IMG/VR virus record: IMGVR_UViG_3300031853_000142
Span: 1-36,062 of that record
DNA from: a virus
DNA length: 36,062 nucleotides
Strand: one strand, 5' to 3'
This document shows positions 1 to 36,062 of the stretch, piece after piece (the first letter of the stretch is position 1; each line of letters begins with the position of its first letter). Both the position numbers and the translations under genes were made by a program. A model generated the notes under the pieces. The model did not search any database and was not told where the DNA came from. It saw only the letters and a list, made by a program, of their open reading frames with translations.

Positions 1-2
1 GC

Positions 3-164
3 GAATGGATTAATAGTGAATGGTTCGGTTTGAACAGAGCTTTAGTCAATGCCCGTACTGTTAGCAGATTGATTAGTAGCGGTATGTATTGCAATAGTAA
101 TATTTTAAGTGAAATCAATTATGAGAAGGATGGTAATCTTGGATATTACTGGGTGGAAGTATGA
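3..164 (+). CDS. 5'-truncated hypothetical protein (...EWINSEWFGLNRALVNARTVSRL...YYWVEV*)
   Basis: Open frame from window start to TGA 162-164, overlapping the MTase start as ATGA (translational coupling typical of virus operons); not in the ORF track. Confidence 0.6.
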   Translation, partial: EWINSEWFGLNRALVNARTVSRLISSGMYCNSNILSEINYEKDGNLGYYWVEV

Positions 165-1453
165 AACAACCAATAAAATATTTCAGTATGTTTAGTGGAA
201 TAGGAGGTTTTGAGTATGGAATGGAACAATCTGATTATGAATTTGAGTGCGTTGGTTACAGCGAAATAGACAAGTATGCGAGGAGTATTTATGAAAGACA
301 CTATCCAAACCACATTAACTACGGAGATGCAACACTCATCAATACCGAAGACTTGCCAAGTTTTGAGTTCCTCGTTGGAGGATTTCCTTGTCAAGCTTTC
401 AGCATTGCTGGAAAACGAAAAGGATTTGACGAAGCAAGAGGAACACTATTTTTTGAGATTGCAAGGGTTCTCCGAGACAAAAAGCCCTCTTGTTTTTTAC
501 TCGAAAACGTTAAGGGCTTATTATCTCATGATAGGGGCCGAACTGTCCAAACCATTTTTAGGGTCTGCGATGAACTCGGGTATGATGTATCATGGGCGGT
601 TTATAATTCCAAAGACTATGGTGTGCCGCAGAATAGGGAGAGGATTTTTATTAAGGGATATTCTCGAACCAGTTGTGGAGGAGAAGTATTATCTGTCCCC
701 AGAGTTGACAAGGCGGTTGATGAGCCAATGAGCAACACTTATTATGGTGTTCGTGCTGGTCGTGGGCATAAGGATGATGAGATTATGAACACCTTGTCTT
801 GCAGTGGTCATAATGGTGGAAGTAGCCAGTTAATACAAATCAATGATAAGAAGCAACAAGCAGAGCGTGTTTATGATAGTGAGGGTTTGGCTGCAACATT
901 GTTAGGTACGGGGAGTAAAGGATTGTATAAAATCAATAAGGTTGGGGAAATCAATAATCATCAATCTGGTCAAGTTTATGATGTTGATGGGATTTCTCCT
1001 ACACTATGTGGTGGTGATGGGGGATTAGGTGCAAGAACTGGATTGTATAAGATTAACACGGTTAAAAAGGGTAAACATCAAAGTGGGAATGTTTATGGTG
1101 ATGATGGAGTGAGTCCTTGTTTAACTGCTGTAGATTATAAAAGACCAGTGAAAATTGTTCAACCTGTGCTTACTCCTGAACGTGAAAACAAAAGACAAAA
1201 CGGCCGCCGTATGAAAGACAATGATGAGGAAATGTTTACATTAACAGCAACAGACAAGCATGGAGTCTACGATGGCATAACCGTCCGCAAACTAACACCA
1301 GTGGAATGTGAAAGGTTGCAAGGGTTCCCTGATGACTGGACAAAATACGGCAAAGACAACGAACCGATATCTGACACACAACGATACAAATGTTGTGGTA
1401 ATGCAGTTACTACGAACGTGATATCTGCGATAATAGAGGAGATGTTCCAATAA
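161..1453 (+). CDS. DNA (cytosine-5)-methyltransferase, main (alpha) reading frame
   Basis: Motif I FSGIGG, IV GFPCQ, VI ENVKGL, VIII PQNRERIF, variable region with repeated modules, IX RKLTPVECERLQGFPD, X RYKCCGNAV. Confidence 0.96.
   Translation: MKQPIKYFSMFSGIGGFEYGMEQSDYEFECVGYSEIDKYARSIYERHYPNHINYGDATLINTEDLPSFEFLVGGFPCQAFSIAGKRKGFDEARGTLFFEIARVLRDKKPSCFLLENVKGLLSHDRGRTVQTIFRVCDELGYDVSWAVYNSKDYGVPQNRERIFIKGYSRTSCGGEVLSVPRVDKAVDEPMSNTYYGVRAGRGHKDDEIMNTLSCSGHNGGSSQLIQINDKKQQAERVYDSEGLAATLLGTGSKGLYKINKVGEINNHQSGQVYDVDGISPTLCGGDGGLGARTGLYKINTVKKGKHQSGNVYGDDGVSPCLTAVDYKRPVKIVQPVLTPERENKRQNGRRMKDNDEEMFTLTATDKHGVYDGITVRKLTPVECERLQGFPDDWTKYGKDNEPISDTQRYKCCGNAVTTNVISAIIEEMFQ
291..731 (+). CDS. 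Overlapping +1-frame ORF (146 aa), M.EcoHK31I beta-polypeptide-like
   Basis: AGGAG SD at 281-285 before ATG 291; C-terminal NSGMMYHGRF...LLRDILEPVVEEKYYLSPE resembles the recalled beta polypeptide; ATG and open frame conserved in the diverged second copy. Confidence 0.72.
   Translation: MKDTIQTTLTTEMQHSSIPKTCQVLSSSLEDFLVKLSALLENEKDLTKQEEHYFLRLQGFSETKSPLVFYSKTLRAYYLMIGAELSKPFLGSAMNSGMMYHGRFIIPKTMVCRRIGRGFLLRDILEPVVEEKYYLSPELTRRLMSQ
368..732 (+). repeat. 365-bp exact direct repeat, copy 1 (identical to 35698-36062)
   Basis: Line-by-line comparison; offset 35330 bp; upstream sequence is homologous but diverged back to the MTase start, and unrelated beyond it. Confidence 0.97.
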
Positions 1454-1462
1454 AGAGGTGGA

Positions 1463-1612
1463 ATGATGAGTGATTGTGATAATTGCATACACACTTTCTA
1501 TAATGATAATACGTGGTACTGCCTACTAGGTAACCGACCAAACAAGGAATGCGAGGACTACCACCACTGGAACAGATTAACAGATGAAGAGAAGAGACAA
1601 TGCAGAAGCTGA
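1463..1612 (+). CDS. Small Cys-rich hypothetical protein (49 aa, CDNC...C...C)
   Basis: GAGGTG SD upstream; fills the gap between the MTase and the next ORF; not in the ORF track. Confidence 0.65.
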   Translation: MMSDCDNCIHTFYNDNTWYCLLGNRPNKECEDYHHWNRLTDEEKRQCRS

Positions 1613-1803
1613 AATGTAATTATTGTGGGAATACCCTAACTATAAGCGAGGTTTGGGCATTCCTACATTATTTATTCAAAAAGAAGTATTATGTGCAATG
1701 CCCAAAGTGCAAGCATATTAGCAATTACTATATTCGCTTATGGCTAACCCATGATACCACCGACAAGCTCGAAAAAGAAACCAACAAAAAACTAAGATGG
1801 TGA
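1600..1803 (+). CDS. Small zinc-ribbon protein
   Basis: CNYC...CPKC pair; overlaps neighbours in an operon-like fashion. Confidence 0.7.
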   Translation: MQKLKCNYCGNTLTISEVWAFLHYLFKKKYYVQCPKCKHISNYYIRLWLTHDTTDKLEKETNKKLRW

Positions 1804-2054
1804 GAAACTTTATGACAACAACAAAAACAATACCCTTAAAAGACCTGGTAGAACAAGCCCGCAAAGAATACGGATGGCCAAACCTACGCTCAAGTCCAAA
1901 GAAAGACGAAATACGAAAAATCCCAGACACCTACTGGAAAGAACAACACGATCAAGGCAAACAACTAAAAGAAGTAGCCGAAGAATTAAACATAAGCCCC
2001 TGCTACCTATCTAAATACCTAACATCACAGGGCATCTATTGGAGACAGTTATGA
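1797..2054 (+). CDS. Helix-turn-helix DNA-binding protein (start may be 1812)
   Basis: C-terminal GKQLKEVAEELNISPCYLSKYL HTH-like pattern. Confidence 0.65.
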   Translation: MVRNFMTTTKTIPLKDLVEQARKEYGWPNLRSSPKKDEIRKIPDTYWKEQHDQGKQLKEVAEELNISPCYLSKYLTSQGIYWRQL

Positions 2055-2233
2055 TGAATGGCAGATACGAATATGACATACAGAACCGGTTAATCAAAAA
2101 AGATGGGAATTACCTTGCAAGATTAACCGACAAGGAAGCCCACAAGATAATTGATGAGCTTAACAGACAAGACAGAAAACTGAATGAGTATGAAAGAACA
2201 ATCGCCAAGATAAGGAAAATATTAAGAAGCTGA
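2051..2233 (+). CDS. Hypothetical protein
   Basis: ATGA coupling with the upstream stop; C-terminal coiled coil. Confidence 0.65.
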   Translation: MMNGRYEYDIQNRLIKKDGNYLARLTDKEAHKIIDELNRQDRKLNEYERTIAKIRKILRS

Positions 2234-2239
2234 TAAACC

Positions 2240-2404
2240 ATGCCGAACCAATTAGAAAACCTACTACGGGAAGTACAACAAAGCATAACCATGATAGACA
2301 AAAGAATACACTCACTTGATGAAAGAAAAACTGAACTAGTCCAATTCCGCCAGGAACTAGTCCAGGAACAAGAACGATTACTCAGGGAGAAGAGGATAAG
2401 ATGA
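2240..2404 (+). CDS. Small coiled-coil hypothetical protein (54 aa, MPNQLENLLREVQQS...)
   Basis: Fills the gap; stop overlaps the next ATG (ATGA); not in the ORF track. Confidence 0.65.
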   Translation: MPNQLENLLREVQQSITMIDKRIHSLDERKTELVQFRQELVQEQERLLREKRIR

Positions 2405-2595
2405 ATCCAAAACATAAAAGAAGCCTAAACATAATCAATGACACAATAACCGACCTAACCAACTTCATCAATAATTTTTACCAACAACTACCAAAAGGAG
2501 GAGACGATCCAAACCTTGACAAGAGGATAAAGTCTGACCTTGAAGACCTAAGGATTTGCATTCAATTATATGAGAACAGGTTGGAACGGGAATGA
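2401..2595 (+). CDS. Hypothetical protein
   Basis: ORF track; ATGA coupling at both ends. Confidence 0.65.
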   Translation: MNPKHKRSLNIINDTITDLTNFINNFYQQLPKGGDDPNLDKRIKSDLEDLRICIQLYENRLERE

Positions 2596-2858
2596 AATGC
2601 GGATACTGTGGGTCACCCTTTATTCCACAGTATCCTCATCAGAAATATTGCAGTAAGACTTGCAGCAGTAATCGCCACAGAGAGCAGAAATGTGCTTATG
2701 CAAGGCGAAGATATAAAAGGATAAGGGATAAAGACCTGATTAATCCCAGTCAATTCAAGCCAGGCACAAGCAACTTACACCAACACAAGCTTGCTGATGA
2801 TGAGGCGGAGTACAAGCGAATACAACAAGAAATGCGACGATTAAAATTGAGAGGTTAA
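2592..2858 (+). CDS. Zinc-finger protein (CxxC...YCSxxC), paralog A
   Basis: CGYCGSPF...QKYCSKTC; C-terminal DEAEYKRIQQEMRRLKLR shared with 3470-3733. Confidence 0.75.
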   Translation: MKCGYCGSPFIPQYPHQKYCSKTCSSNRHREQKCAYARRRYKRIRDKDLINPSQFKPGTSNLHQHKLADDEAEYKRIQQEMRRLKLRG

Positions 2859-3149
2859 ACTGTCTATAAGTATTAGTAGTATAGGAGGAAAACAAAGGCA
2901 AAAAATGGGGATCAAACATTTTCACCTAAAAACTTGGATGATACTTCCCAATAATAATACTAATCTTCCCCACACTACTTCCTTTCTTTTTCTTTTATAC
3001 AATGTGCATATAGTAATTCATTAATACAAAGTTCCAAGTAATTAAAAGTCAAATCGTCGCAAAGCAAAGTATATACCAAATAGTTTTACCATTTTCTATA
3101 GCCAAAAAATATAACAACAGTCTTCAATCATTTGTGCAATATAGTATTC

Positions 3150-3179
3150 ATTTAAGTCCCTCCTATAAGGATTTGAAAC
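3150..3179 (+). CRISPR. Solitary CRISPR-repeat-like unit (30 nt), not a full array
   Basis: ATTTAAGTCCCTCCTATAAGGATTTGAAAC; the 3' 18 nt differ by one base from CCTATAAGGAATTGAAAC, the recalled 3' end of 30-nt type I-B-associated repeats; small hairpin TCCT-ATA-AGGA. Confidence 0.5.
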
Positions 3180-3360
3180 ACAACAAATGGGAAATGTATC
3201 ATCCAAAAATGGTGAAAAAAACAAGTTTATTCTTTTAACTGGCATGGATTTTTGGTTCAAACCCAAACCAAGCCACAATATTTCCAAAAAAAGAAACCAT
3301 TGTTTAAGGAATATGTGATATAAAAATATGCAAACCAATATCATAATATAGTAAAAAACT

Positions 3361-3430
3361 GGGGGAGTACCATTGGGGGCTTCAGCAACCATAACACTTT
3401 TTTATGGGCCTCAAAACTCCCCCTTTTTTT
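3361..3430 (+). ncRNA. Candidate structured small RNA or RNA element followed by U7
   Basis: Nested stems GGGGGAGT/ACTCCCCC, TTGGGGGC/GCCTCAA and CCATAA/TTATGG, with an 8-nt bulge TTCAGCAA; GC-rich island in AT-rich intergenic DNA. Confidence 0.45.
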
Positions 3431-3469
3431 ACCACTACAAAAAAAGATAATACTTTTAACACTATTTTT

Positions 3470-3733
3470 ATGACTACTCACTACTGCCAACTATGCGGAA
3501 AACCCTACAAGAAAACCACGAACAACCAAAGATACTGCTCACAAGAATGCAGTCAGGAGGCCCGCAGACTCAAATCACGAGTATATTTTAGTCGATGGTA
3601 CACGAAAAACAAAGTATACTGTTGGGCAAGAAAAAAAGGCACCGGCACACTAGGACCACACAGGCACGAAACCGATGAATCCGAATACGAAGCGATCCAG
3701 AAAGAATTGCACCGCCTACGGCTACGAAAATAA
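3470..3733 (+). CDS. Zinc-finger protein (CxxC...YCSxxC), paralog B
   Basis: CQLCGKPY...QRYCSQEC; the track start at 3404 lies inside the RNA hairpin, and ATG 3470 aligns with paralog A. Confidence 0.75.
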   Translation: MTTHYCQLCGKPYKKTTNNQRYCSQECSQEARRLKSRVYFSRWYTKNKVYCWARKKGTGTLGPHRHETDESEYEAIQKELHRLRLRK

Positions 3734-3757
3734 AACTAACCCTAATCCTTTTTGACT

Positions 3758-3800
3758 TGCTTTGAGTGTATAATAACAGAACCCAAAATAAAAGGATAGG
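3758..3800 (+). promoter_or_regulatory. Putative late promoter/leader, copy 1 (TGCTTTGAGTGTATAATA...AATAAAAGGA)
   Basis: 18-bp exact match to 8871-8888 plus a shared downstream AATAAAAGGA; lies before the packaging operon. Confidence 0.6.
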
Positions 3801-3809
3801 GAGGATAGG

Positions 3810-4169
3810 ATGAGTGGAGTCGAATGCCTACACGAAGAACAAATACAAGCCCAATCACGGAAAATAACCGAACTAGAAACCCGTGCGGATTTCAAAGACA
3901 AACGAATCGATGAACTATACACTAAGATGGATAAGATGGAAAACAAACTAGACAAGCTTAATGAGAATGTCAATCAATTATTGATACAATCACGGCAAGG
4001 GGACACCGACCTCGAATTAAGACTCAAAGCCATCGAAACCGAACTCGCACTACAAAAACAAACCACCCTCGATAACCACAACCGAATATCTAGCTTGTTA
4101 GCAATTATTGGTGTCGGATTAACTATTATAACCATCTTGATTAACGTTTATTTCAACATAATACGATAA
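3810..4169 (+). CDS. Coiled-coil protein with C-terminal transmembrane helix (XhlA-like architecture)
   Basis: Heptad-rich N-terminus; hydrophobic LLAIIGVGLTIITILINVYF; GGAGG SD. Confidence 0.7.
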   Translation: MSGVECLHEEQIQAQSRKITELETRADFKDKRIDELYTKMDKMENKLDKLNENVNQLLIQSRQGDTDLELRLKAIETELALQKQTTLDNHNRISSLLAIIGVGLTIITILINVYFNIIR

Positions 4170-4221
4170 CCCATTCATTAGAGAAAAATAAGATACAACA
4201 AGATTAAATAAGGATGATAAT

Positions 4222-4929
4222 ATGGCAATAACCGAATGGCACACTCCAATACATGAATGTCAAAAAGGAGAAGTACAAAGGGAACGATGCTATTTAGAGC
4301 CATACTTTTTCTTCAATGGAAACTTAAAGGACTATGCCAAATTATTGCAGTATGCATTTGCTAAACAACATGAACAAAACCTGAACAAAACTTGCACAAA
4401 TTATGAAGAGTTCCTTGAGAAACAACCTATCTGTTTTCATCCATATGACAAAGACAAAGGCCAAGCTCCAACATACCAACAATTAAGACATTGGAGCAAT
4501 GGAGTCAATACCAACTGTGATGAAAAACATAACTGGGATGAAAGAAGGTCCAGTAAAAGAAATGAGTTCAGTAGATTACAATCAGAAAATATGGCTGCAC
4601 AGTTTGCCGAGGATATGCCTTATTTTTATGAATGTGTTAAAAAAGGATTTCAAGAAGTTGATGAGTCTGTAGACAATGCCAAAATGATGGGGAAATTCAC
4701 ACCACATCAAGCAGAATCCGCAACCAAAGGAAGAAACAATGCAGTCAACAGTTTACTCCAATTAACTGGTAAAGACAAAGATTATAATGTTAAAGCCGAT
4801 GTCAATGCAGATATTGAAGCCAAAGCAGAAGTAGAAACCAAAGCAGATATTGCTCAAGACATCATACTCAAACCAGAATATGTAGAACTAACAAGAAAAC
4901 TGTTGGAGGATGTTGTCAATGACTCCTAA
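4222..4929 (+). CDS. terS: Probable terminase small subunit
   Basis: Position directly upstream of and overlapping terL; size; helical C-terminus. Positional inference only. Confidence 0.6.
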   Translation: MAITEWHTPIHECQKGEVQRERCYLEPYFFFNGNLKDYAKLLQYAFAKQHEQNLNKTCTNYEEFLEKQPICFHPYDKDKGQAPTYQQLRHWSNGVNTNCDEKHNWDERRSSKRNEFSRLQSENMAAQFAEDMPYFYECVKKGFQEVDESVDNAKMMGKFTPHQAESATKGRNNAVNSLLQLTGKDKDYNVKADVNADIEAKAEVETKADIAQDIILKPEYVELTRKLLEDVVNDS

Positions 4930-6394
4930 AATACCTGACAACCCAGCATTCTTTGCAATGAAAGCAAGTGAAAACACATGGAAACCCTTCCAACACTTAA
5001 TACTCATAATTGAATTATTACTCTATGTAGTACAAGGCAGACTATCACGATTAATGATATTCTGCCCACCAAGACATGGCAAATCAGAATTAATCAGTTA
5101 CTATTTTTTAGCATGGTACCTCGGATACTTCCCTGACAAGAAAGTCATATTAACAACACATACTGCAGCTTTCAGTAGGAAATGGGGAAGAAGAGTCCGG
5201 AACCTATTAAAGAAATACGGATTAACACTCTTCGAACAAGAAATACGATTATCAGAAGACAGTCAAGCCGCAAGTAACTGGAACATCAAAGGCCATCAAG
5301 GAGGATTATTCACAAGTGGTACTGGTGGGGCAATCATAGGTGAAGGTGCAAACCTATTCCTAATTGATGATCCAACTAAAGGTTTCAAAAAAGCTAACAG
5401 TAAAACTCACCAACAAGAACTGAATGACTGGTGGTATACTGAAGCCAAGACAAGACTTGATGCCGACCTTGAGAAAGGAATCAAACCGGGAGTAATTGCT
5501 ATCTTCCAAAGATTAAACAAATGGGATTTAGCCGGACAAATATTGTACAAAAAAGATGGGGAGAAGACAGTTCCCAACGAACCTCAAATGGATATATTCA
5601 AAGCATTGGAAATCCTACGGAATGGTGGAACTATCCCTTATGGCACATGGGTTATCTGTAATCTACCAGCAATAGCTGAAGAGAATGACCCATTGGGCCG
5701 TGAACCCGGAACTGCATTATGGCCTGAAAAAGTACCTGTTGAAGAACTCCAACAAAACAAAAGAACAATGGGTAGTTTCAGATTCAATGCAGTTTATCAA
5801 GGTAACCCAATGGAACCTGAAGGGGGAGTATTCAAAAGAAAATGGTTCCGAAATAGCAAAGTGCCTGACAAGCAGATGGACCAAATGATAAAAGACTTGC
5901 CAAGCTTGCGATATTGGGATTTGGGTGCAAGCGGTGAAGAGGGAGACAATACTGCCGCTAATTTAAGTTATTATGATGGAGAGTATTTGTATTTTAGAAA
6001 ACAATTGAACAAAGGATTGACTCCATTGCAAGTAGATAAATATTTTGTTAATGTTACTTTGAGAGATGGTAAAGAAACCACAGTTCGTATTGAGCAAGAA
6101 CCGGGTGCATCTCCTAAAGTTTTGATAAATAAATTTTCAAGACATAAAAAACTGAAAGGGCATCGAATAAGGCCTGACAAAGTGAGAAATGCTGGTGATA
6201 AATTAACAAGAAGTTTCGATTTGCAGTCTTTGGCTGAAGATGGAAAAGTGTTGATAGCAGAATCAATCTTTGATGAAGTTGTTAATGAGTTAGTGGAATT
6301 CACCGGAGAAGAAGGCGGAACCGATAACATTGTGGATACCTGTACTGGTGCTGCAAGGTATTGGTTAAGGCCTAAAAGGAAAGTTAATGCGTGA
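4919..6394 (+). CDS. terL: Terminase large subunit
   Basis: Walker A PPRHGKSEL, Walker B LFLIDDP, C-terminal RNase H-like nuclease (YWDLG...DNIVDT); GGAGG SD favours ATG 4919 over the track start 4910. Confidence 0.95.
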   Translation: MTPKIPDNPAFFAMKASENTWKPFQHLILIIELLLYVVQGRLSRLMIFCPPRHGKSELISYYFLAWYLGYFPDKKVILTTHTAAFSRKWGRRVRNLLKKYGLTLFEQEIRLSEDSQAASNWNIKGHQGGLFTSGTGGAIIGEGANLFLIDDPTKGFKKANSKTHQQELNDWWYTEAKTRLDADLEKGIKPGVIAIFQRLNKWDLAGQILYKKDGEKTVPNEPQMDIFKALEILRNGGTIPYGTWVICNLPAIAEENDPLGREPGTALWPEKVPVEELQQNKRTMGSFRFNAVYQGNPMEPEGGVFKRKWFRNSKVPDKQMDQMIKDLPSLRYWDLGASGEEGDNTAANLSYYDGEYLYFRKQLNKGLTPLQVDKYFVNVTLRDGKETTVRIEQEPGASPKVLINKFSRHKKLKGHRIRPDKVRNAGDKLTRSFDLQSLAEDGKVLIAESIFDEVVNELVEFTGEEGGTDNIVDTCTGAARYWLRPKRKVNA

Positions 6395-6400
6395 TATATT

Positions 6401-7993
6401 ATGACAAAGAAATCTGATAGTTTTATAGTGACAATCGACAATGAAAAAGAGTACCATGTTATCGACCAGTTAGAACTCGATAAATATGCAATGAAAGCGG
6501 ATATTGACCCTGCGACTGGGAGCAAACAGGTAGTGGATGAAACTTACAGGATGGGGCATAACATCCTCAATCCGAAATATAACCCATACGATTTAGTGGC
6601 TTTACTAGATTTGTACACTTATCATGCGAGTTGTGTTGAAGCGGTCGCAATGGATGTCAGCGGTATCAGTTACACATTGAAACCAATAGAAGGTACTGAG
6701 CCAATCGAGGTGGAAAAGGAACGTTTCATTACTGTGTTAGATAATTGTACCCCAAGTATTAATACTCATTTGCAACGCCTTGTTTATGACCGCAGAACAA
6801 TCGGCTATGGTGCTTTGGAAGTGATACGGGAGGATAAGTCTGATTCTGATATTATAAGGTTGAAGCATATTCCTGCACAGACATTAAGAAGACACGCCGA
6901 CCTTAAAAGAGTATTGCACACTACACCATCTGGCAAGCGAGTATGGTTCGTGATTTATGGCAAGAATTATGATGAGTATGGTAACAAGTGTGATGTTCAT
7001 GCAGATACTGGTGAATTCCACCCATATAATTCATTGGAGCCTCATGAGAAAGCCAACGAATTACTATGGAGTATGGAGTATTCACCAGGGACCAACTATT
7101 ACGGCAGACCTCCAATAGTCAGTTGTCTTGGCAGTATTAAGGGGGATATTGGAGCAGTCAAATACAATAATAGTTTCTTTGAGAATTATGGAATGCCGAA
7201 GTTTGCTATTACTGTTACTGGTGACTTCGCAGATTATGATGTGGATCCAGATGATGAAGATTATGACATCACACAGACTTTAAGGTATAAGATTGGTCAG
7301 CAGATTAAGGAAGTTATTAAGAACCCACACTCCGCTATTTGTATTACCATTCCAAGTGAGGGTGAAGAGGGTAATGTTGACTTGCAGATTACTCCATTAA
7401 GTGTGCAGACGGAGGAGGGTCATTTCCGTATGTATCGTAAGGATACCCGTGATGAGGTTATTCATGCTCACCACATGGACCCAAGCCGTCTCGGTGTATT
7501 CGACTCCGGTAACCTGAACGGCAGTAACTCCGAAGCGACTATGAGCAGTTACAAATATGGCACTATTGCTCCAATCAAGGCAGAAATGGAGTCATTGATT
7601 AATCAAATTGGAACCGAATTAGGAATCACTAGTTGGAAGTTCTGTATTGAAGAAGTGGCACCAATCGACTACACAAAGGATTTAGCATTAGCGGAGTTCC
7701 TGTTTGCAAGGGGTGCTATGACTATTAAGGAATTGATTGATAATTTCGGTGGTAAATTCGGACTAACCATGGAAGACCCAGATGACTACTACCTGAATGC
7801 AAGATACATGAATGGTCAACCATTGGACATATTATGGGGAAATGTGGAAGACAATCCAAACCTTGAATATGATACAATACTCAGCTCAATAGAAGATACA
7901 TTCAGAGGAGAAACTAATCATGAAAACATCACTGGAGAAGAAGAGGAAACTGATAGCATCATTAGTGACAAGGAAGAGGTCACAACTGAATGA
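6401..7993 (+). CDS. Portal protein
   Basis: Follows terL; YYGRPPI, NNSFFENYGMPKFAITV and DEVIHAHHMDPSRLG are typical portal motifs. Confidence 0.92.
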   Translation: MTKKSDSFIVTIDNEKEYHVIDQLELDKYAMKADIDPATGSKQVVDETYRMGHNILNPKYNPYDLVALLDLYTYHASCVEAVAMDVSGISYTLKPIEGTEPIEVEKERFITVLDNCTPSINTHLQRLVYDRRTIGYGALEVIREDKSDSDIIRLKHIPAQTLRRHADLKRVLHTTPSGKRVWFVIYGKNYDEYGNKCDVHADTGEFHPYNSLEPHEKANELLWSMEYSPGTNYYGRPPIVSCLGSIKGDIGAVKYNNSFFENYGMPKFAITVTGDFADYDVDPDDEDYDITQTLRYKIGQQIKEVIKNPHSAICITIPSEGEEGNVDLQITPLSVQTEEGHFRMYRKDTRDEVIHAHHMDPSRLGVFDSGNLNGSNSEATMSSYKYGTIAPIKAEMESLINQIGTELGITSWKFCIEEVAPIDYTKDLALAEFLFARGAMTIKELIDNFGGKFGLTMEDPDDYYLNARYMNGQPLDILWGNVEDNPNLEYDTILSSIEDTFRGETNHENITGEEEETDSIISDKEEVTTE

Positions 7994-8843: not shown

Positions 8844-8870
8844 AAATTCTCACCTATCTTTTTTTTAAAC

Positions 8871-8925
8871 TGCTTTGAGTGTATAATAGAAAGCCCCACA
8901 ATAAAAGGAAGGTACAGGGGCTTTC
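8871..8925 (+). promoter_or_regulatory. Putative late promoter/leader, copy 2, followed by a 9-bp hairpin
   Basis: TGCTTTGAGTGTATAATA at 8871-8888; GAAAGCCCC (8889-8897) pairs with GGGGCTTTC (8917-8925); precedes the protease-capsid operon. Confidence 0.6.
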
Positions 8926-24152: not shown

Positions 24153-25199
24153 ATGACAAAAATCAAAACAACTGACATTATCAAAGAAGCGGTTGAAGTT
24201 AAACATTTTATTGAAACTAATAAGAAGCTTCCACGGTACTGCACAATCCAAGGCAACCAATACACCCCATACACGGTCGCCTACTTGATAAGCCGAACCA
24301 TTGCAAACTTGAAAGCAGATACTTTTAATGTTAAAGCAATTGGCAAGTCTAACCAAGGATTCAGTGTGAAACTCTCCGAAAATTGTAGCAAAACAACCTA
24401 CCTTGATATGATAGGTAGGTTTAATGATTATTGTAGCAAAAATGGTAGAGTCCCTGCATATGTAGTAACCATAAGAAACAAATCCGATTTCACAACTTAC
24501 CTTTACGGAGTGTGTAAAATACTAAACTACTACAAGCAAAACAATACTTTGCCGAAGACTTGCCTATTTACAAGTGCCTACATTGATGTAAATGGAAGGA
24601 GCAGTACAAATTCAAAAAAAGATACTGCTCAATCTACATCAAGTAATGCAAACCTTGAAGTTTATACCAGTAGCCCACACTATCTGAATACTGGATGCAA
24701 CAACCTAGGACAATGCACCAGTTATTACTGTGGTGTTCATTCAGTCCATCAAGTATTGCGGAAGTTTGGAATAACCAAATACAACGAAAACAAACTAGCA
24801 GGCTGGGCAGGAACCACAACCTCAGGAACCGACCATCAAGGCATACTTACTGCGATTGCCAAGGCAAGTAATGGCAAACTACAAGCAAAGTGGATTAATT
24901 TTAGCAGTCTTGGAAATGATACAAACAGTAGGTTTAAAGCATTAGGCAAACTAATAAGCCAAAAGGATACTGACTGCATCATACACAACCTATACCGATT
25001 AAAATATGGTCATTATGAAACCATCCACAAAATCGACCACACCAACAAAACAGTATATGTCTTAAACAGTCTTGGCAATAAGTGTGGCACAACCAGTTAT
25101 TGCGGATACATAGAAAAAAGAAGCTACAATGAATATGCCAAGTATATTGCAAATACACCGGCTAACCAACCAAGCATATGCCTAATCACAAAAAAATAA
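24153..25199 (+). CDS. Endolysin: pseudomurein endoisopeptidase (pseudomurein-binding repeats + C39-like peptidase, PeiR-like)
   Basis: N-terminal repeats (FIETNKKLPRYC; YCSKNGRVPAYV; YYKQNNTLPKTC); GQCTSYYCGVHS nucleophile motif; GHYETI; VYVLNSLG. Confidence 0.85.
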   Translation: MTKIKTTDIIKEAVEVKHFIETNKKLPRYCTIQGNQYTPYTVAYLISRTIANLKADTFNVKAIGKSNQGFSVKLSENCSKTTYLDMIGRFNDYCSKNGRVPAYVVTIRNKSDFTTYLYGVCKILNYYKQNNTLPKTCLFTSAYIDVNGRSSTNSKKDTAQSTSSNANLEVYTSSPHYLNTGCNNLGQCTSYYCGVHSVHQVLRKFGITKYNENKLAGWAGTTTSGTDHQGILTAIAKASNGKLQAKWINFSSLGNDTNSRFKALGKLISQKDTDCIIHNLYRLKYGHYETIHKIDHTNKTVYVLNSLGNKCGTTSYCGYIEKRSYNEYAKYIANTPANQPSICLITKK

Positions 25200-25816: not shown

Positions 25817-26329
25817 ATGTTTTACGAAAACATAGAATATGATATAATATCAGATATTCCATTAGAGGAACTGCAAAAATACCTAGTTGAAAACAATATT
25901 TATCTTAATATGTCCACCACAACAGAAAAATGGGCAGGATTTAGTCATTATTACGCAAGAGAACACGGCCTTAATGATGTGTATGCTGGAAGTTTCGCTA
26001 ATATGGTAGCACAATTTGTCACTGGAATGAGTTGCAGCTGCGGAACTGAAATGTATTTGAAAGAAGAGAAAATAGAGTATGAAATCTTGAAAATAAGTGA
26101 CAGGATAAGATTGTCAAATTTCACTGATGAAGAAAAAGTTAAGATGTTGTTTCATGAGATCTTCAAGTTCTACAATTCAGACAATTTTCAGCAGTATGAA
26201 TTAGCTTTTGGTAGGCTGGATTGCAGACTTACTTATACTGATACTGTCTTGTTTGAAAAAGTTGAGGGGGATAACCCTACTCAAAAAGTTAGAAATCTTC
26301 TTAGGTTCTATGATGATCATACGGAATAA
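25817..26329 (+). CDS. Stand-alone accessory (moron-like) protein, 170 aa, unknown function
   Basis: AGGTGAT SD before ATG 25817; own TATA box upstream and T-tract downstream. Confidence 0.75.
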   Translation: MFYENIEYDIISDIPLEELQKYLVENNIYLNMSTTTEKWAGFSHYYAREHGLNDVYAGSFANMVAQFVTGMSCSCGTEMYLKEEKIEYEILKISDRIRLSNFTDEEKVKMLFHEIFKFYNSDNFQQYELAFGRLDCRLTYTDTVLFEKVEGDNPTQKVRNLLRFYDDHTE

Positions 26330-26444
26330 TTTTTCTTTTTATTATTTTTTTGATTTATTCAGAAAAGTTTATATACTATGAATGACATACTATGTACAAC
26401 GAAGTATAACATTACTCCAAAACAGAAATAAACGAAGTGATAAA

Positions 26445-26750
26445 ATGACAGAATATGTAGAATTTGAAATTGTAAGCACCGAAAACAGTCAAATAACCCT
26501 CAAAGGATATGTGGACATCACAACAATCGATGATGATGAACCTGAAATCGGCTACTATGACCACCAAGGATTTACCACCACAAACCTGCCAAAAAACCCA
26601 TTTGACTTCGCAGAAAAAGAGCATATGCAATACTACAACTTGATCCAAAAATGGGCAGAAGACTCCCAGTTCCTGCAATGGATATGGGATTGTAAAGATG
26701 ACAACAGAAGGGAAATAGACAGAGGAAATTACTATTTAATAATCAATTAA
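26445..26750 (+). CDS. Stand-alone accessory (moron-like) acidic protein, 101 aa, unknown function
   Basis: TTTATATA box at 26368-26375; AGTGAT SD-like site; T-rich region downstream. Confidence 0.7.
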   Translation: MTEYVEFEIVSTENSQITLKGYVDITTIDDDEPEIGYYDHQGFTTTNLPKNPFDFAEKEHMQYYNLIQKWAEDSQFLQWIWDCKDDNRREIDRGNYYLIIN

Positions 26751-27049
26751 AACTAATTTTTGTTTAATCGAGTATAATAATTTCATTATAGTATTCCTTT
26801 TTTTCTATTTTCATTTTTTTATTACATTTACTCGTTTTTTTATTACTACCTTATTGCTTTTTAACCCTAAAAAAACAAACCAAAATACATACCATACACA
26901 AAAAAGTGATAAAAATATGAAAAACCGGTAGAAACCAAACAAGGTTTCATCTAAAAAACAACCAAAGTTTCCACCCCACAAAGCATATTACTTTTCAAAT
27001 GCACTCACTCTATTTTAAAAAAGACCAAAAAACAAAAAGGTAAAACACA

Positions 27050-28168
27050 ATGATATACGAAGAAGACAAAAAACTTCTTCAAGAAATAAGCACCGCTAAA
27101 AACCTGAACAAAAACACGATAAGCAATTACAGGTCAAGCATAAAACAATACACACAATGCATTGGAAAAAGCATGACCAACTTGCTAATCGAAGCAGAAA
27201 CGGAGGAAGAACAAGGCATACGGTGGAAAAAAAGGAAAATCAGGACACACCTAATACGGTACCGGGCACACCTAATAGACAAGTACGAGTACGAAGGAAC
27301 CATCCGAGTATACCTAACAAAAATACTCGCAATCTACCGACACTACGAGATAGAACTCCAACCACTACCACAGGTAAGCACACGAGACAAAACCCAGACA
27401 ATGGTCAAATACGCGGACTTACCTGACAAGGAAATAATCCGAAGAGCCCTAAACATTGCAGACCCACAAACTAAAGCAATAATCTTGCTAATCTGCAGTG
27501 GGGGGATGGGCAGGACTGAAGTCACAAATCTCACAGTACAAGACTTCATAACCGCGACCAGTGAATACCACAACAAAACGGACATCCATGAAGTCCTGCA
27601 AGAGTTAGATCCAAACACTGATATAATCCCAACTTGGCAAGTGCACCGGCAGAAAACCAACAAGGATTATTATACTTTCAGCACACCTGAGAGCACAAGG
27701 GCAATCCTCTACTACTTATACGACACACGGCGAAACCTAACAAGCGAGGACTTATTGTTTGGGATAAAACCGGATTACCTGGGAAGGAAATTCAGGACGA
27801 TTAACAACAGATTAGGACTTGGCAAGGTTGGAGCATACAACCGGTTCCGACCCCATATGCTCAGGAAGTATCATGCAAGCCAACTCAACCAGGGCAAGCA
27901 TAAGCTGAGCCTTGATGAAGTGGATAGTTTGCAGGGACGAGGCAAGAGTGGCACACGGGCTTCCTATTTCCTATCCAATCCAGAGGATTTACGGCGTAAG
28001 TATTGTTTGAATATGGGCGAGCTGCTTATTCTTGAAGCTGAAAAAAAGAGTAATGATAGTGAGTTGCTTGAATTGCAAAGACGGTATGATGAATTACAGG
28101 CTAATATTAAGGAGGCTGCACGTTTGGAGGTGAAAAAGATACTTGAAGAATTAGGTTACAAATTATAG
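27050..28168 (+). CDS. int: Tyrosine recombinase/integrase
   Basis: Catalytic R (GMGRTEV), K (RQKT), HxxR (PHMLRKYH), LQGR and Y (ASYF); N-terminal core-binding domain. Confidence 0.93.
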   Translation: MIYEEDKKLLQEISTAKNLNKNTISNYRSSIKQYTQCIGKSMTNLLIEAETEEEQGIRWKKRKIRTHLIRYRAHLIDKYEYEGTIRVYLTKILAIYRHYEIELQPLPQVSTRDKTQTMVKYADLPDKEIIRRALNIADPQTKAIILLICSGGMGRTEVTNLTVQDFITATSEYHNKTDIHEVLQELDPNTDIIPTWQVHRQKTNKDYYTFSTPESTRAILYYLYDTRRNLTSEDLLFGIKPDYLGRKFRTINNRLGLGKVGAYNRFRPHMLRKYHASQLNQGKHKLSLDEVDSLQGRGKSGTRASYFLSNPEDLRRKYCLNMGELLILEAEKKSNDSELLELQRRYDELQANIKEAARLEVKKILEELGYKL

Positions 28169-28276
28169 AAAATAAAAATTAGTAGGGGTATGGCTGCCAA
28201 AGCAGTAGTATAGAATAGAGAATAATACGATAAAAAAAAAGAGAGTTCCATTAGTTAAAATAATAACTTATAATTT

Positions 28277-28291
28277 TTTGCACAAATAGGA
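28277..28291 (+). repeat. 15-bp direct repeat TTTGCACAAATAGGA, copy 1 (copy 2 at 28741-28755)
   Basis: Exact match; both copies are followed 9-12 nt later by ACTATGAAAA. Confidence 0.85.
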
Positions 28292-28403
28292 TTTATTTTT
28301 TGAACTATGAAAACCTTTACTTTTTATAGCATTGTTTATCTTCAGCAACCATGAACTTATTTTTGTCCATGATTACTTATAAAGATGTCGCTACATTAAG
28401 GTT

Positions 28404-28595
28404 TTAATCGTCGCTATTTTCTCTCTTTTTTACTGTTATCACCTTCTCATCATCGATGACATTGACAGTCCAAGTCAACTCATCATTGGGTTCAACTTCT
28501 AAAACATCACCAATTGCCTTCGGAATGCCAGTTCGGAGGCTATTACTGGTGGTGTTTGCCTTATTGATTTTACTATGCTGTTTCAAGATTATCAT
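28404..28595 (-). CDS. AbrB/MazE/SpoVT-family DNA-binding protein, putative lysogeny/early-gene regulator
   Basis: SNSLRTGIPKAIGDVLEVEPNDELTWTV swapped-hairpin signature; GAGGT SD; the only minus-strand gene, divergent from the early operon. Confidence 0.85.
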   Translation of the reverse strand: MIILKQHSKINKANTTSNSLRTGIPKAIGDVLEVEPNDELTWTVNVIDDEKVITVKKRENSDD

Positions 28596-28635
28596 ACCTC
28601 TTGTTATATTTTTCGTTATATATAATTATACTTTT

Positions 28636-28690
28636 TATCTATAATAAATGTTGCCATTAAGTTAAACAAAAAGTCGCAACTTTTATATAA
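28636..28690. promoter_or_regulatory. Back-to-back divergent promoters with palindromic operator AAAAGTCGCAACTTTT
   Basis: Rightward GCAACTTTTATATA and leftward (reverse complement) GCAACATTTATTATA; palindrome at 28669-28684. Confidence 0.55.
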
Positions 28691-28740
28691 GATGAAAACA
28701 AATAATAAAACAAGCAAGACTTAAAATCTTGACTTAAAAA

Positions 28741-28755
28741 TTTGCACAAATAGGA
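28741..28755 (+). repeat. 15-bp direct repeat TTTGCACAAATAGGA, copy 2
   Basis: Exact match to 28277-28291; forms the leader of ORF 28768. Confidence 0.85.
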
Positions 28756-28767
28756 AAATTTGGTACT

Positions 28768-28899
28768 ATGAAAATAGAAAACGAAACCCTGGTCATACTC
28801 CCTAACGGGGAACTGACCAACGGAGAAAACATAATACGAGCATTAAAGCTCGAAGAAAGAATACTGAAATTTGCCAAAGAAGGTGAAAACAATGGTTAA
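28768..28899 (+). CDS. Small hypothetical protein (43 aa, MKIENETLVILPNGEL...)
   Basis: First ORF of the early operon; overlaps the next start; not in the ORF track. Confidence 0.6.
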   Translation: MKIENETLVILPNGELTNGENIIRALKLEERILKFAKEGENNG

Positions 28900-29071
28900 G
28901 CAGAAACTTTACGCGATCAACCCAGACAGTATCTGGTGCATCGGCAGTCGGGGTAAATGCTACGAAGCCTACCTCGGCAGAACTGTTAAACGAAGCCAAC
29001 TCAAACTTGGCAAGACAGTAGAAGTCGAATTCCACAATCACAAAGCCTACATCAAGGGAGTGTGCCAATAA
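28892..29071 (+). CDS. Small hypothetical protein (beta-rich)
   Basis: AGGTGA SD before ATG 28892. Confidence 0.65.
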   Translation: MVKQKLYAINPDSIWCIGSRGKCYEAYLGRTVKRSQLKLGKTVEVEFHNHKAYIKGVCQ

Positions 29072-29253
29072 TGGAACCATGGGAACATGACGAAATATTC
29101 AACACAACACACTCAATTGATGCACCAGATGAACAAATCCCACCATATGATCCTTATGATGAGGAGCAGTACATGGTGGATTGTTACTTAAATGATGAGG
29201 CTTATTTGGAAGCCCATATAAGCAGCCTGCTTGGTGAAGAGGTGAAACTATGA
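29071..29253 (+). CDS. Small acidic hypothetical protein
   Basis: TAATG coupling. Confidence 0.65.
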   Translation: MEPWEHDEIFNTTHSIDAPDEQIPPYDPYDEEQYMVDCYLNDEAYLEAHISSLLGEEVKL

Positions 29254-29459
29254 AGAATGGACTGCAAAACTTCCTTGCATATTGTTATATGTGTTATACT
29301 GGCAAGGCAAGACTGGACCGTGTACAGACTGATATCCACAGGACACTTGTCCTGGTTGGTTTTGTAACACTCCTTGTTTTAGCATTTCTAGGGCTTGTAG
29401 CACTTTGCTTCATTATAAAGCCACCGGAGTATTATAGTACTCCTTTGGCTTTTTTATAG
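29250..29459 (+). CDS. Small membrane protein
   Basis: One long hydrophobic helix LVLVGFVTLLVLAFLGLVALCFII; GAGGTGA SD. Confidence 0.7.
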   Translation: MKNGLQNFLAYCYMCYTGKARLDRVQTDIHRTLVLVGFVTLLVLAFLGLVALCFIIKPPEYYSTPLAFL

Positions 29460-29470
29460 GAGGATTTTTG

Positions 29471-29659
29471 ATGAGAACTATCAAGAAACAAGAAACAATC
29501 CGTACCGATTGGCATGGCATCTTGAAAGAGATTAACCGAATAGGTGTATTCGGTGCCAAGAAAGTACAAACCATCAGCATCAAGCAATACGAGTCAGACC
29601 TACATAATAAACCAGAGTACACACTTACCATCAATACTTTGGAGGAGAGAGATGACTAG
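29471..29659 (+). CDS. Hypothetical protein
   Basis: AGGAGG SD; ORF track. Confidence 0.7.
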   Translation: MRTIKKQETIRTDWHGILKEINRIGVFGAKKVQTISIKQYESDLHNKPEYTLTINTLEERDD

Positions 29660-29846
29660 TATTGGAGAGTTAGCAGACGAACTATTAGAAACCATAGCAC
29701 TGGAAGACGAAATGTACTTCCAACGGCATGGCTTCTACACCACAAGGACAAGGGCAAACGAATGCCGAGTCCTTGTCTTTGAAATACCAAACGAACAAAA
29801 GAAACTTGAAGATTTTAACATATGGAGATGTAAGAATGGCAACTAA
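29652..29846 (+). CDS. Hypothetical protein (MTSIGELADELLE...)
   Basis: GGAGG SD before ATG 29652. Confidence 0.65.
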   Translation: MTSIGELADELLETIALEDEMYFQRHGFYTTRTRANECRVLVFEIPNEQKKLEDFNIWRCKNGN

Positions 29847-30222
29847 AAAAGAAGCTGAAGAGAACCCTTTTGAAGAAATGAAACCATTACGATACACCGA
29901 TACTGTTTACAACTGCATCGGACTATGGAGACAAAAAGGCATCGACGTCAACATGATGCTAATCAAAGAACTAGAAGGAGCAAAGAAAAACCTAGACGTC
30001 TACCGACAGAAAGTCGATATTGACAAAAACACCCTGTTGCTTGAAACCAACTGGGACAATGTGAACGAAGAAAGAAAAGCACAAGGCCTCCCAAAAATAT
30101 CAAATGAGAGTATGAGGAAGGCTTACATAGACTCTCAACTCGTACAAGAAAAAAGAGAACTAAACACACTCACAGTCGAATATGAGACACTATTAAGAAT
30201 TTATGATGCAATCAAGGAGTAA
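29836..30222 (+). CDS. Helical/coiled-coil hypothetical protein
   Basis: GGAG SD before ATG 29836. Confidence 0.7.
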   Translation: MATKKEAEENPFEEMKPLRYTDTVYNCIGLWRQKGIDVNMMLIKELEGAKKNLDVYRQKVDIDKNTLLLETNWDNVNEERKAQGLPKISNESMRKAYIDSQLVQEKRELNTLTVEYETLLRIYDAIKE

Positions 30223-30227
30223 ATACT

Positions 30228-30581
30228 ATGGCATTTGAAACAATAGAACCTGGAGTAGACGAAACAAGCAGATACTGGGAACCACTAACAGTTGGAGACC
30301 GAATAGAAGGAAACGTAATAGACTTTGTAGAAGACAACTACGGCAACACAAGAATATTATTAGAACTTGAAAGTGGCTTCGAAAAAGAACTACCATCACA
30401 CAGAGACCTGCAAAGATACAACCGCAAAGTCGACATCGGCGACTACATCAGAGTAACCCTTGCGAAGATAATCCCAAGCAATAATGAAAATTATGCGGAT
30501 AAAAGGGTTTACAAGGTTGAAAAAGACCCATCACGCCGTGTAGAGTATGAAGAAGACGAAGGTGAAGTATATGACTACTAA
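30228..30581 (+). CDS. Putative OB-fold single-stranded DNA-binding protein
   Basis: YWEP...GDRIEGNVI...VDIGDYIRVT beta-barrel pattern, acidic C-terminal tail, next to a putative annealing protein; pattern-level inference. Confidence 0.5.
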   Translation: MAFETIEPGVDETSRYWEPLTVGDRIEGNVIDFVEDNYGNTRILLELESGFEKELPSHRDLQRYNRKVDIGDYIRVTLAKIIPSNNENYADKRVYKVEKDPSRRVEYEEDEGEVYDY

Positions 30582-31389: not shown

Positions 31390-31449
31390 CCCCCATCTTC
31401 CACCACTTTTTTTTATCACCCAAACAAATACGGGAGGTGAAAAACCACA

Positions 31450-33486: not shown

Positions 33487-33489
33487 AAA

Positions 33490-33715
33490 CACAAGATTAC
33501 ATTTGAAATTACATTTTGTCTTTGTAATTCCAAAACATTGGAGAACCCAGTATTTTGTAGTTTTGAGTATTCATAGGATTTATTATAAAATTACAAAATT
33601 TTTTCAATGGGTATTGGTATATTACAGAGAGACCTTTTTTATTGTTTGTAATTTTGTAATAATGTAATTCTAAACAATAAGATAAGCAATGTAATTTTGT
33701 AATTTTGTAATTTCA
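33490..33715. repeat. Putative replication origin: 11 copies of ATTACA/TGTAAT in both orientations
   Basis: ATTACA at 33496, 33508, 33590, 33621; TGTAAT at 33523, 33647, 33655, 33663, 33690, 33698, 33706 (8-bp period in two triplets). Confidence 0.7.
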
Positions 33716-33738
33716 AAAAAAATATAAGGAGACAACTT

Positions 33739-34817: not shown

Positions 34818-34822
34818 ATATT

Positions 34823-35074
34823 TTGTTGAAATGTCCCAAGTGTAAAAAAATGATACATCAAAAATATGCTGCATGGACTAACACGGAACCAATGATAAGC
34901 CGAAGAGCCTATGACTGCCAAGCTTGCCGGACCCGTTTTATTGAAACTGTGGAAGTTGGATCATGCAGGGTGTTAGGGATTGTTGAGGAGAGGTTTGTTG
35001 ATAGGCAGAGTACATTAGATTTTTTTAATGGAGGATTGAGTAAAGATGTTGGAAGTAGTACAAGAAGAGGATAA
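34823..35074 (+). CDS. Zinc-ribbon protein (TTG start)
   Basis: CPKC...CQAC; AGGAGG upstream. Confidence 0.65.
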   Translation: MLKCPKCKKMIHQKYAAWTNTEPMISRRAYDCQACRTRFIETVEVGSCRVLGIVEERFVDRQSTLDFFNGGLSKDVGSSTRRG

Positions 35075-35258
35075 ATTGAAATGCAGTAAGGATTTGAATT
35101 TTATCAAGTTGAGTTTGAGTAATCTTAGGATTGGGCATAGTCAACTAATGCTAGACCTGCCACTTGATTACCATAGCGAAGACTTTGATACTGCTTTCAT
35201 GGAGTTGGTGGATGAGTTGGAGGATTTAATCAAAGATTACGAGGCACGGATACTATGA
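35046..35258 (+). CDS. Hypothetical protein
   Basis: GGAGG SD; ORF track. Confidence 0.65.
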   Translation: MLEVVQEEDKLKCSKDLNFIKLSLSNLRIGHSQLMLDLPLDYHSEDFDTAFMELVDELEDLIKDYEARIL

Positions 35259-35338
35259 GTGAAGCTGATTATTGCATTTTAGGAGAAGGATTTTGCCAAT
35301 GGTGTAGGTATTGTATAATCAAGTATAAGGAGGATTAG
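35255..35338 (+). CDS. Tiny Cys-rich peptide (27 aa, MSEADYCILGEGFCQWCRYCIIKYKED)
   Basis: ATGA coupling to the upstream stop; four Cys; not in the ORF track. Confidence 0.45.
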   Translation: MSEADYCILGEGFCQWCRYCIIKYKED

Positions 35339-35341
35339 AGA

Positions 35342-35482
35342 TTGACTGATGACCAATTATTCGGTGAAACCGACCTTGAAGAAAAAATTAAGGAACTGGA
35401 AGGGGAAGTGAAATCTTTGAATGCTTTCCTTGTACATAATGGCTTTGCAGAAGAGTATACCCGATGGAAAGGTGATGATTGA
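35342..35482 (+). CDS. Small hypothetical protein (46 aa, TTG start)
   Basis: AGGAGG SD upstream; stop overlaps the MTase ATG; not in the ORF track. Confidence 0.55.
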   Translation: MTDDQLFGETDLEEKIKELEGEVKSLNAFLVHNGFAEEYTRWKGDD

Positions 35483-36062
35483 TGAGTGAAAAAACAATCA
35501 AATACTTCTCGATGTTTAGCGGCATTGGAGGATTTGAATACGGAATAGAAAAAGCAAACACACAAACCGACTTTGAATGCGTCGGTTATTCAGAAATAGA
35601 TAAATACGCGGTGAGCATATATGAAAAACACTATCCAAACTACATTAACTATGGAGATGCAACAAAAATCAATACCGAAGACCTGCCAAACTTTAGCTTC
35701 CTCGTTGGAGGATTTCCTTGTCAAGCTTTCAGCATTGCTGGAAAACGAAAAGGATTTGACGAAGCAAGAGGAACACTATTTTTTGAGATTGCAAGGGTTC
35801 TCCGAGACAAAAAGCCCTCTTGTTTTTTACTCGAAAACGTTAAGGGCTTATTATCTCATGATAGGGGCCGAACTGTCCAAACCATTTTTAGGGTCTGCGA
35901 TGAACTCGGGTATGATGTATCATGGGCGGTTTATAATTCCAAAGACTATGGTGTGCCGCAGAATAGGGAGAGGATTTTTATTAAGGGATATTCTCGAACC
36001 AGTTGTGGAGGAGAAGTATTATCTGTCCCCAGAGTTGACAAGGCGGTTGATGAGCCAATGAG
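35482..36062 (+). CDS. DNA (cytosine-5)-methyltransferase, second copy, truncated by the window end
   Basis: MSEKTIKYFSMFSGIGG...GFPCQ...ENVKGL...PQNRERIF; GGTGAT SD; absent from the track because no stop is reached. Confidence 0.93.
   Translation, partial: MSEKTIKYFSMFSGIGGFEYGIEKANTQTDFECVGYSEIDKYAVSIYEKHYPNYINYGDATKINTEDLPNFSFLVGGFPCQAFSIAGKRKGFDEARGTLFFEIARVLRDKKPSCFLLENVKGLLSHDRGRTVQTIFRVCDELGYDVSWAVYNSKDYGVPQNRERIFIKGYSRTSCGGEVLSVPRVDKAVDEPM
35621..36061 (+). CDS. Overlapping +1-frame ORF (146 aa), beta-polypeptide-like, second copy
   Basis: GGTGAG SD at 35610-35615 before ATG 35621; same length as 291-731 despite 5' divergence. Confidence 0.72.
   Translation: MKNTIQTTLTMEMQQKSIPKTCQTLASSLEDFLVKLSALLENEKDLTKQEEHYFLRLQGFSETKSPLVFYSKTLRAYYLMIGAELSKPFLGSAMNSGMMYHGRFIIPKTMVCRRIGRGFLLRDILEPVVEEKYYLSPELTRRLMSQ
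35698..36062 (+). repeat. 365-bp exact direct repeat, copy 2 (runs to the window end)
   Basis: Identical to 368-732. Confidence 0.97.

Follow-up and report, generated by a model that had tools for sequence, protein, structure and literature searches.

The 365-bp exact repeat carried by the viral contig studied here can be read with good confidence as the wrap-around overlap of a 35.3-kb circle, in front of which stands a 367-base spur from a second, co-occurring allele of the same methyltransferase gene, with no true duplication. The window, by which we mean the whole IMG/VR record IMGVR_UViG_3300031853_000142, is a single contig of 36,062 bases, classed in IMG/VR as linear and assigned a CheckV completeness of 91%. 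The evidence comes from the repeat itself, from the gene order of related viruses, from an independent assembly and from the occurrence of the spur and of its parts in other samples.

An exact repeat behind two different methyltransferase N-termini

Both copies of the repeat lie in a gene for a C5 cytosine DNA methyltransferase. In the following list of features at the two ends of the window, X and X' denote the two N-terminal alleles and Y denotes the variable region downstream of the shared core.

1..164 (partial ORF 3-164), + strand: 3' part (53 codons and the stop) of a gene of ~85-93 aa, a component of the spur
161..1453, + strand: C5 cytosine DNA methyltransferase as written (X'-core-Y), 430 aa, PF00145 with E 4e-82
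161..367, + strand: N-terminal allele X', codons 1-69, with motif I FSGIGG, second part of the spur
368..732, + strand: shared catalytic core, first pass, codons 70-190 plus 2 nt, with PCQ, ENV and QNRER (motifs IV, VI and VIII), in the PF00145 match
733..1230, + strand: variable target-recognition region (Y) with tandem GLYKIN...SP(T/C)L modules
34823..35481, + strand: small-ORF cassette (83, 70, 27 and 46 aa), from the ORF list and its translations, in the slot held by the 93-aa gene in relatives
35482..35697, + strand: N-terminal allele X, codons 1-72, continuous with the genome body
35698..36062, + strand: shared core, second pass, an exact copy of 368-732 that runs to the contig end

Alignment and direct string comparison both returned 365 identical bases out of 365 between 368-732 and 35698-36062, as a preliminary description of this DNA had reported. 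The same description had noted that the N-termini diverge and that the genes before them are unrelated, and both observations hold: the translations read MKQPIKY...EQSDYEF on the left and MSEKTIKY...EKANTQTDF on the right, preceded by the 3' part of the ~93-aa gene and by the ORFs of 83, 70, 27 and 46 aa, respectively. An exact repeat of 365 bp in 36 kb is far beyond chance. Its identity halts sharply at 367/35697, where a G faces a C. Upstream of this point, 161-367 (207 bp) and 35482-35697 differ at ~50 positions and by a 6-nt indel, which amounts to ~75-80% identity, and 5' of the two start codons (161 and 35482) the sides have no meaningful alignment. The repeat reaches the right terminus only, since the left copy begins at 368, after the 367-base divergent stretch. 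The left copy is part of a complete 430-aa ORF (161-1453), and the right copy belongs to the first 193 codons of a gene that is cut by the contig end. No further copy of either segment occurs within the window.

The PF00145 match covers positions 2-323 of the 324 in the profile. Motifs I (FxGxG), IV (PCQ), VI (ENV), VIII (QxRxR) and X (GNAV) are all present in the translation and are invariant in the homologue alignment. In the protein collection, the methyltransferase of this very record is listed as P0230, a JGI/IMG product from a 36,062-base contig.

Closing the contig at the repeat restores a gene and a conserved gene order

Joining 35482-35697 to 368-1453 yields a stop-free, in-frame methyltransferase of 433 aa, and closing the contig at the repeat gives a circle of 35,330 bp (bases 368-35697). 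The contents of the circle, in the order of the contig, are given below.

161-1453, + strand: methyltransferase (PF00145), with small ORFs next to it
3404-3733: g109
4222-4929: TerS-like gene
4910-6394: TerL
6401-7993: portal, then a Mu-F-like head protein, capsid and tail genes and a Dit-like protein
After the Dit-like protein and before the endolysin: tail protein of 1,096 aa with a transglutaminase-like end
24153-25199: endolysin with a pseudomurein-binding repeat and a C39-like domain
27050-28168: tyrosine integrase, mid-contig, with early genes next
Between the early genes and the ERCC4/HhH nuclease: primase/helicase-like protein of 678 aa
34104-34817, + strand: ERCC4/HhH nuclease (PF02732, E 9e-13), a conserved gene that bounds the variable accessory locus on the left

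Starting from the integrase, the gene order thus reads integrase, replication genes, ERCC4, methyltransferase, TerS, TerL, portal, capsid, tail and lysis. The integrase lies mid-contig, and neither host DNA nor an att-bounded provirus layout was found anywhere in the 36,062-base record; we therefore regard the contig as a circularly permuted genome of a temperate virus, broken inside the methyltransferase gene. From its gene content, the virus is predicted to be temperate and tailed and to infect a pseudomurein-walled methanogen. The assignment to Methanobacteriales follows from the pseudomurein-binding repeat in the endolysin and from the best named match of TerL, which among named records is closest to that of Methanobacterium virus Drs3 (43%). 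A bacterial host had also been weighed, since in the genome collection the methyltransferase has its nearest homologues in Saccharibacteria MAGs (~52%); it was dropped on account of the same endolysin repeat and the same TerL match.

The gene order of relatives bears directly on the closure. Two IMG/VR records whose TerL is 92-93% identical (L111 and L112) have the ERCC4 gene directly followed by a g109 homologue, TerS and TerL, and L112 also carries a homologue of g119. Since ERCC4, g109, TerS and TerL are contiguous in these two records, a conserved gene order crosses the end-to-start join of the window. The structural module is likewise colinear with that of relatives. No C5 methyltransferase (PF00145) is present in three near-complete relatives (CheckV 95-100%), and none of the records examined holds two PF00145 genes, relatives carrying zero or one. 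By this synteny, the methyltransferase and its small neighbours form an insertion in the slot between ERCC4 and g109. Pfam and PHROG searches with the small ORFs in 34823..35481 gave nothing except a weak zinc ribbon.

An independent assembly breaks just inside the repeat

Contigs of the Logan assembly of SRR9036418 match the window in two places. The first (L100) is 100% identical to 26104-35727 and, with a full length of 17,515 bp, should begin near 18213; the second (L105; 3,054 bp) is 100% identical to 1231-4284. With 100% identity over 12.7 kb, SRR9036418 is probably the window's own read set. L100 ends at 35727, which is 30 bases past the last mismatch between X and X' at 35697, that is, k-1 in the Logan graph, whose k we take to be 31. 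Such a break is produced when a second sequence that differs at 35697 and is identical afterwards converges in a k=31 graph, and the left copy in the window is a sequence of this kind. The break therefore implies that the junctions of X with the core and of X' with the core both exist in the reads of SRR9036418.

Breaks at 1230/1231 and 4284/4285 mark more boundaries between variant and shared sequence in SRR9036418. An internal repeat as the cause of the break at 1231 was ruled out, since no repeat of 30 nt or more is found there. Because these breaks have no internal repeat behind them, they point to a co-occurring relative that shares 1231-4284 at 100% and diverges on both sides, and sharing of this degree would suggest that the two viruses exchanged sequence very recently. 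L100 is unbranched for at least 9.6 kb upstream of its end (17.5 kb by its full length), which indicates that the second virus shares only patches with the first, namely the core and 1231-4284. Among the Logan contigs retrieved, none covers 398-1230.

The spur and its components occur in other samples

The 93-aa gene at the start of the spur is present on dozens of contigs. Its homologues comprise 15 proteins at 72-100% identity, mostly 84-93 aa in full length, with one fragment of 73 aa. At the nucleotide level, 1-158 is 99% identical to three contigs (L101, L102 and L104), in which the gene is followed by small ORFs, a GIY-YIG nuclease or an N6/N4 methyltransferase. In L103 it lies directly after the ERCC4 gene and before the methyltransferase, and in L099 the ERCC4 gene is followed by a 78-aa distant homologue of the 93-aa gene and then by a C5 methyltransferase. 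Since the gene or its distant homologue lies between ERCC4 and the methyltransferase in these two contigs, the spur (the 93-aa gene and X') is allelic to 34823-35697 (the small ORFs and X).

Matches that reach farther into the methyltransferase gene break off at different points. A MEGAHIT contig from a different sample (L106; ERZ27256883) is 100% identical to 1-334 and then continues into a core that is ~73% identical, and L098 and L099 are ~99-100% identical to 201-750 with different genes upstream. Megablast searches of deposited phage genomes with the two ends of the contig gave no match, and neither did exact-pattern scans of IMG/VR with a 34-mer from the end of the core and with the junction between the 93-aa gene and the methyltransferase. 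When JGI metagenomes were scanned with this 34-mer, the sole match was L107, which comes from another metagenome and carries an allele at 90% identity.

Apart from its place in the spur, the 93-aa gene keeps 96-100% nucleotide identity across L101, L102, L103, L104 and L106, which are from different samples, and the genes on its 3' side are wholly different. Its distribution is that of a putative mobile module, very conserved, that lies beside two unrelated methyltransferase classes (C5 and N6/N4).

The methyltransferase locus is mosaic

A methyltransferase from another sample (P0003) is 96% identical to X'-core-Y over its full length. The close alleles (P0003-P0009) vary between motifs VIII and IX by whole modules, with loss in P0004 and P0007 and gain in P0006, and phrog_8411 matches the methyltransferase of the window in two stretches. 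This variable region suggests a multispecific enzyme whose set of specificities is altered by recombination. N-termini of the X type, at 88-93% identity, are found in many other contigs, whose cores are otherwise only ~65-70% identical; in P0018 and P0079 an X-type N-terminus is joined to the core type seen here. Both N-terminal types, and both pairings with this core, occur in other samples. The exchange points fall at 334/335 and 367/368, shortly ahead of motif IV (367/368 is six codons before the catalytic PCQ), and at ~733-750 and 1231, on either side of the target-recognition region. These points lie at the edges of conserved blocks, which is where homologous recombination would be expected to join alleles that have diverged. 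The accessory C5 methyltransferase locus is block-wise and highly mosaic and is common to co-occurring viruses, which is real and ordinary phage biology.

The closest methyltransferases in the prokaryote genome collection belong to three Candidatus Saccharibacteria MAGs (L061, L062 and L063; 44-52% identity), and methanogens were not the source. These matches hint at a cross-domain spread of the methyltransferase lineage, or at viral contigs that were mis-binned.

A proposed path through the assembly graph would account for the contig

We propose that the record represents one pass round a circular (or circularly permuted) genome of 35,330 bp, assembled in a de Bruijn graph from a sample that would also hold at least one related virus with a different allele of the accessory C5 methyltransferase. 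The two alleles would have the 365-bp core in common and differ before it (X versus X', each with its own upstream genes) and probably also after it, in the target-recognition region. The core would then form a separate edge of the graph with two entries (X and X') and probably two exits (Y and a second region, Y'). On this model the contig would follow the X' edge (1-367), the core, the long edge 733-35697 and the core once more, and would halt at the next branch. Path extension from the long edge 733-35697 would add the core at its end and stop there, the next edge being ambiguous or already used, and extension backward would add the core and then the sole unused entry, X'. Bases 1-367 would thereby be an allelic alternative to 35331-35697, and not additional genome.

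The assembler is presumably JGI's usual metaSPAdes, or a metaSPAdes-like path extension, the record being of JGI/IMG origin. A plain unitig was rejected as the origin of the contig, since a unitig cannot traverse the same 365-bp segment twice, and the 365-bp repeat is longer than any k that we know of for such assemblers. The path of X', core, long edge and core explains why the repeat exceeds any such k and is bounded exactly by the first and the last shared bases. It explains in the same way why end-repeat detection failed and the IMG/VR class is linear, since a 367-base variant edge stands in front of the repeat. The preliminary description had held that an overlap from circular assembly would be identical back to base 1 and hence could not explain the repeat. 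That was too strong, since an overlap that lies between branch points of the graph and is preceded by a short variant edge fits exactly. Of the options that it listed, the join of variants from strains or related viruses is the one we favour, in agreement with the single 35,330-bp circle that it had itself set against its reading of the locus.

Since the contig stops at 36062 and a Logan contig begins at 1231, a second exit at 732/733 (Y') is probable; scans of JGI metagenomes and IMG/VR with the core-end 34-mer recovered no Y' contig from the window's own sample. We infer that the two alleles lie on separate molecules. The choice of X', core and Y at the start of the contig could reflect real read-pair support for this linkage. 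Stretches of 100% identity recur (the core and 1231-4284), and the contig may therefore pass from one virus to the other at further points, so that the circle may carry either allele.

Arrangements in which the contig order or the circle is read differently

The predicted graph and its Logan break points are alike whether the two alleles lie on separate molecules or on one. We consider it unlikely that they lie on one, through recombination of a 35.3-kb virus, via the identical core, into a related resident provirus or a co-replicating genome. The resulting tandem would have the order A-left...X'-core-Y...(virus B)...X-core-Y'...A-right, with the contig as its resolvable middle. The contig as written does have this order, and the junctions of X' and of X with the core are both present in the reads of one sample. 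Yet a 35-kb unit is beyond the span of short reads, and the order therefore carries no weight; co-occurring related viruses are also the commoner case in host-associated methanogen communities. A 365-bp stretch of 100% identity between alleles that are 75-80% identical is a competent substrate for homologous recombination, and the further shared stretch 1231-4284 indicates recent exchange between the two viruses. However, neither host nor provirus sequence flanks the unit in the record, and the contig runs out within the repeat, halting exactly at graph branch points like an unresolved repeat. Moreover, the virus has its own integrase mid-genome, and normal integration would permute the contig there and not in the methyltransferase gene. 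Recombination into a related provirus, which the preliminary description had placed first among its options, would give the same assembly graph, yet nothing in the data requires it.

The wider form of this idea, to which we likewise assign a low probability, is that the contig order is real and that two methanogen viruses are joined in tandem via the core, or are in continual exchange, so that the core would serve as a 'handle' by which recombination brings N-terminal and target-recognition modules into new combinations. If true, such a handle would diversify methylation specificity within the host population.

Quite unlikely, too, is a misjoin elsewhere in the contig. X'-core-Y would then be the true gene of the virus that supplies 733 onward, the contig would pass between two co-occurring viruses at one or more of the stretches that they share at 100%, and the 35.3-kb circle would itself be chimeric, made up of two related genomes. 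The haplotype X'-core-Y is coherent and occurs naturally, as its full-length match to P0003 and the matches of L098 and L099 to 201-750 indicate, and the Logan breaks at 1231 and 4284 reveal more shared/variant boundaries in the same reads. The Logan matches cover 1231-4284 and 26104-35727 and leave 4285-26103 outside them; yet L100 gives 26104-35727 as one unbranched stretch, with the implied start near 18213, and the colinearity of the structural module with relatives also speaks against a chimera. Moreover, a misjoin of this kind alters only the assignment of alleles to viruses, and the terminal repeat remains an assembly product.

Two paralogs with cores kept identical by gene conversion and specificity regions exchanged were a further option of the preliminary description. 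That one genome, exceeding the contig in size, carries such a pair is very improbable: whole-module differences and block-wise N-terminal swaps do show recombination to be frequent in this gene family, but both upstream regions fill the same slot between ERCC4 and the methyltransferase in relatives, which makes them alleles and not neighbours, relatives with zero or one copy and none with two are found, every conserved tailed-virus module is present once in 35.3 kb (in keeping with the CheckV value), and the 'second gene' is a truncated 5' half only, which ends with the contig.

Implications and comparison with known systems

With the wrap-around overlap and the spur as the preferred reading, the two bracketing methyltransferase alleles on one molecule, as first described, most likely do not exist. 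Since the alleles are most likely not on one molecule, no mechanism of duplication, dilysogeny or gene conversion is needed. The record is probably a complete circular genome of 35,330 bp despite its listing as linear and 91% complete, its terminal repeat being masked by the 367-base spur. Offset terminal repeats may conceal other complete genomes in such catalogues and could be screened for. The mosaic methyltransferase and the 100% shared patches would fit a counter-restriction gene at which recombination is frequent, a pattern to be expected of phages and, to our knowledge, little documented for archaeal viruses.

The window resembles the 'DTR' class of CheckV and IMG/VR, in which a de Bruijn walk round a circular genome makes the end repeat near-start sequence exactly, and joining the ends here restores a gene and the gene order of relatives. 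Unlike in that class, the repeat is offset by 367 bases from the left terminus. The locus also resembles a strain-variant branch or spur in metagenome graphs, in which a segment that is 100% identical in two co-occurring relatives becomes a repeat edge with two entries and independent contigs break k-1 inside it. In contrast to such spurs, the variants here are not near-identical strains.

For the protein, the nearest parallel is the set of multispecific C5 cytosine methyltransferases of the Bacillus phages SPR, phi3T and rho11s, reportedly described in the literature of the Trautner laboratory. Like these enzymes, the methyltransferase is a single PF00145 protein with several tandem modules between motifs VIII and IX, and its alleles differ by gain, loss or exchange of modules, module function here being read from sequence repeats only; unlike theirs, the host here is predicted to be an archaeon with a pseudomurein wall. 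For the genome, a parallel is offered by the viruses of gut Methanobrevibacter (MSTV1-like 'usuviruses'), which combine a conserved structural module with a hypervariable array of small genes and in some members carry DNA methyltransferases (PMC11375127). As in those viruses, the methyltransferase cassette of the window belongs to a variable part of the genome, here the slot from ERCC4 to g109, and close relatives lack it; the likeness is one of description, the nearest TerL among named records being that of Drs3 (43%).

Two further repeats were seen away from the methyltransferase locus. A 48-nt direct repeat (81% identical) at 3749-3796 and 8862-8909 contains GAGTGTATAATA and lies just 5' of g119 (3810) and of a 346-aa gene at 8931; the two genes may have a promoter or TATA-box element of this kind in common. 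Downstream of the primase/helicase-like gene, an AT-rich gap holds repeated TGTAATTTTGTAAT motifs at 33647-33720 (two 31-nt copies, 43 nt apart), and this region is a candidate replication origin.
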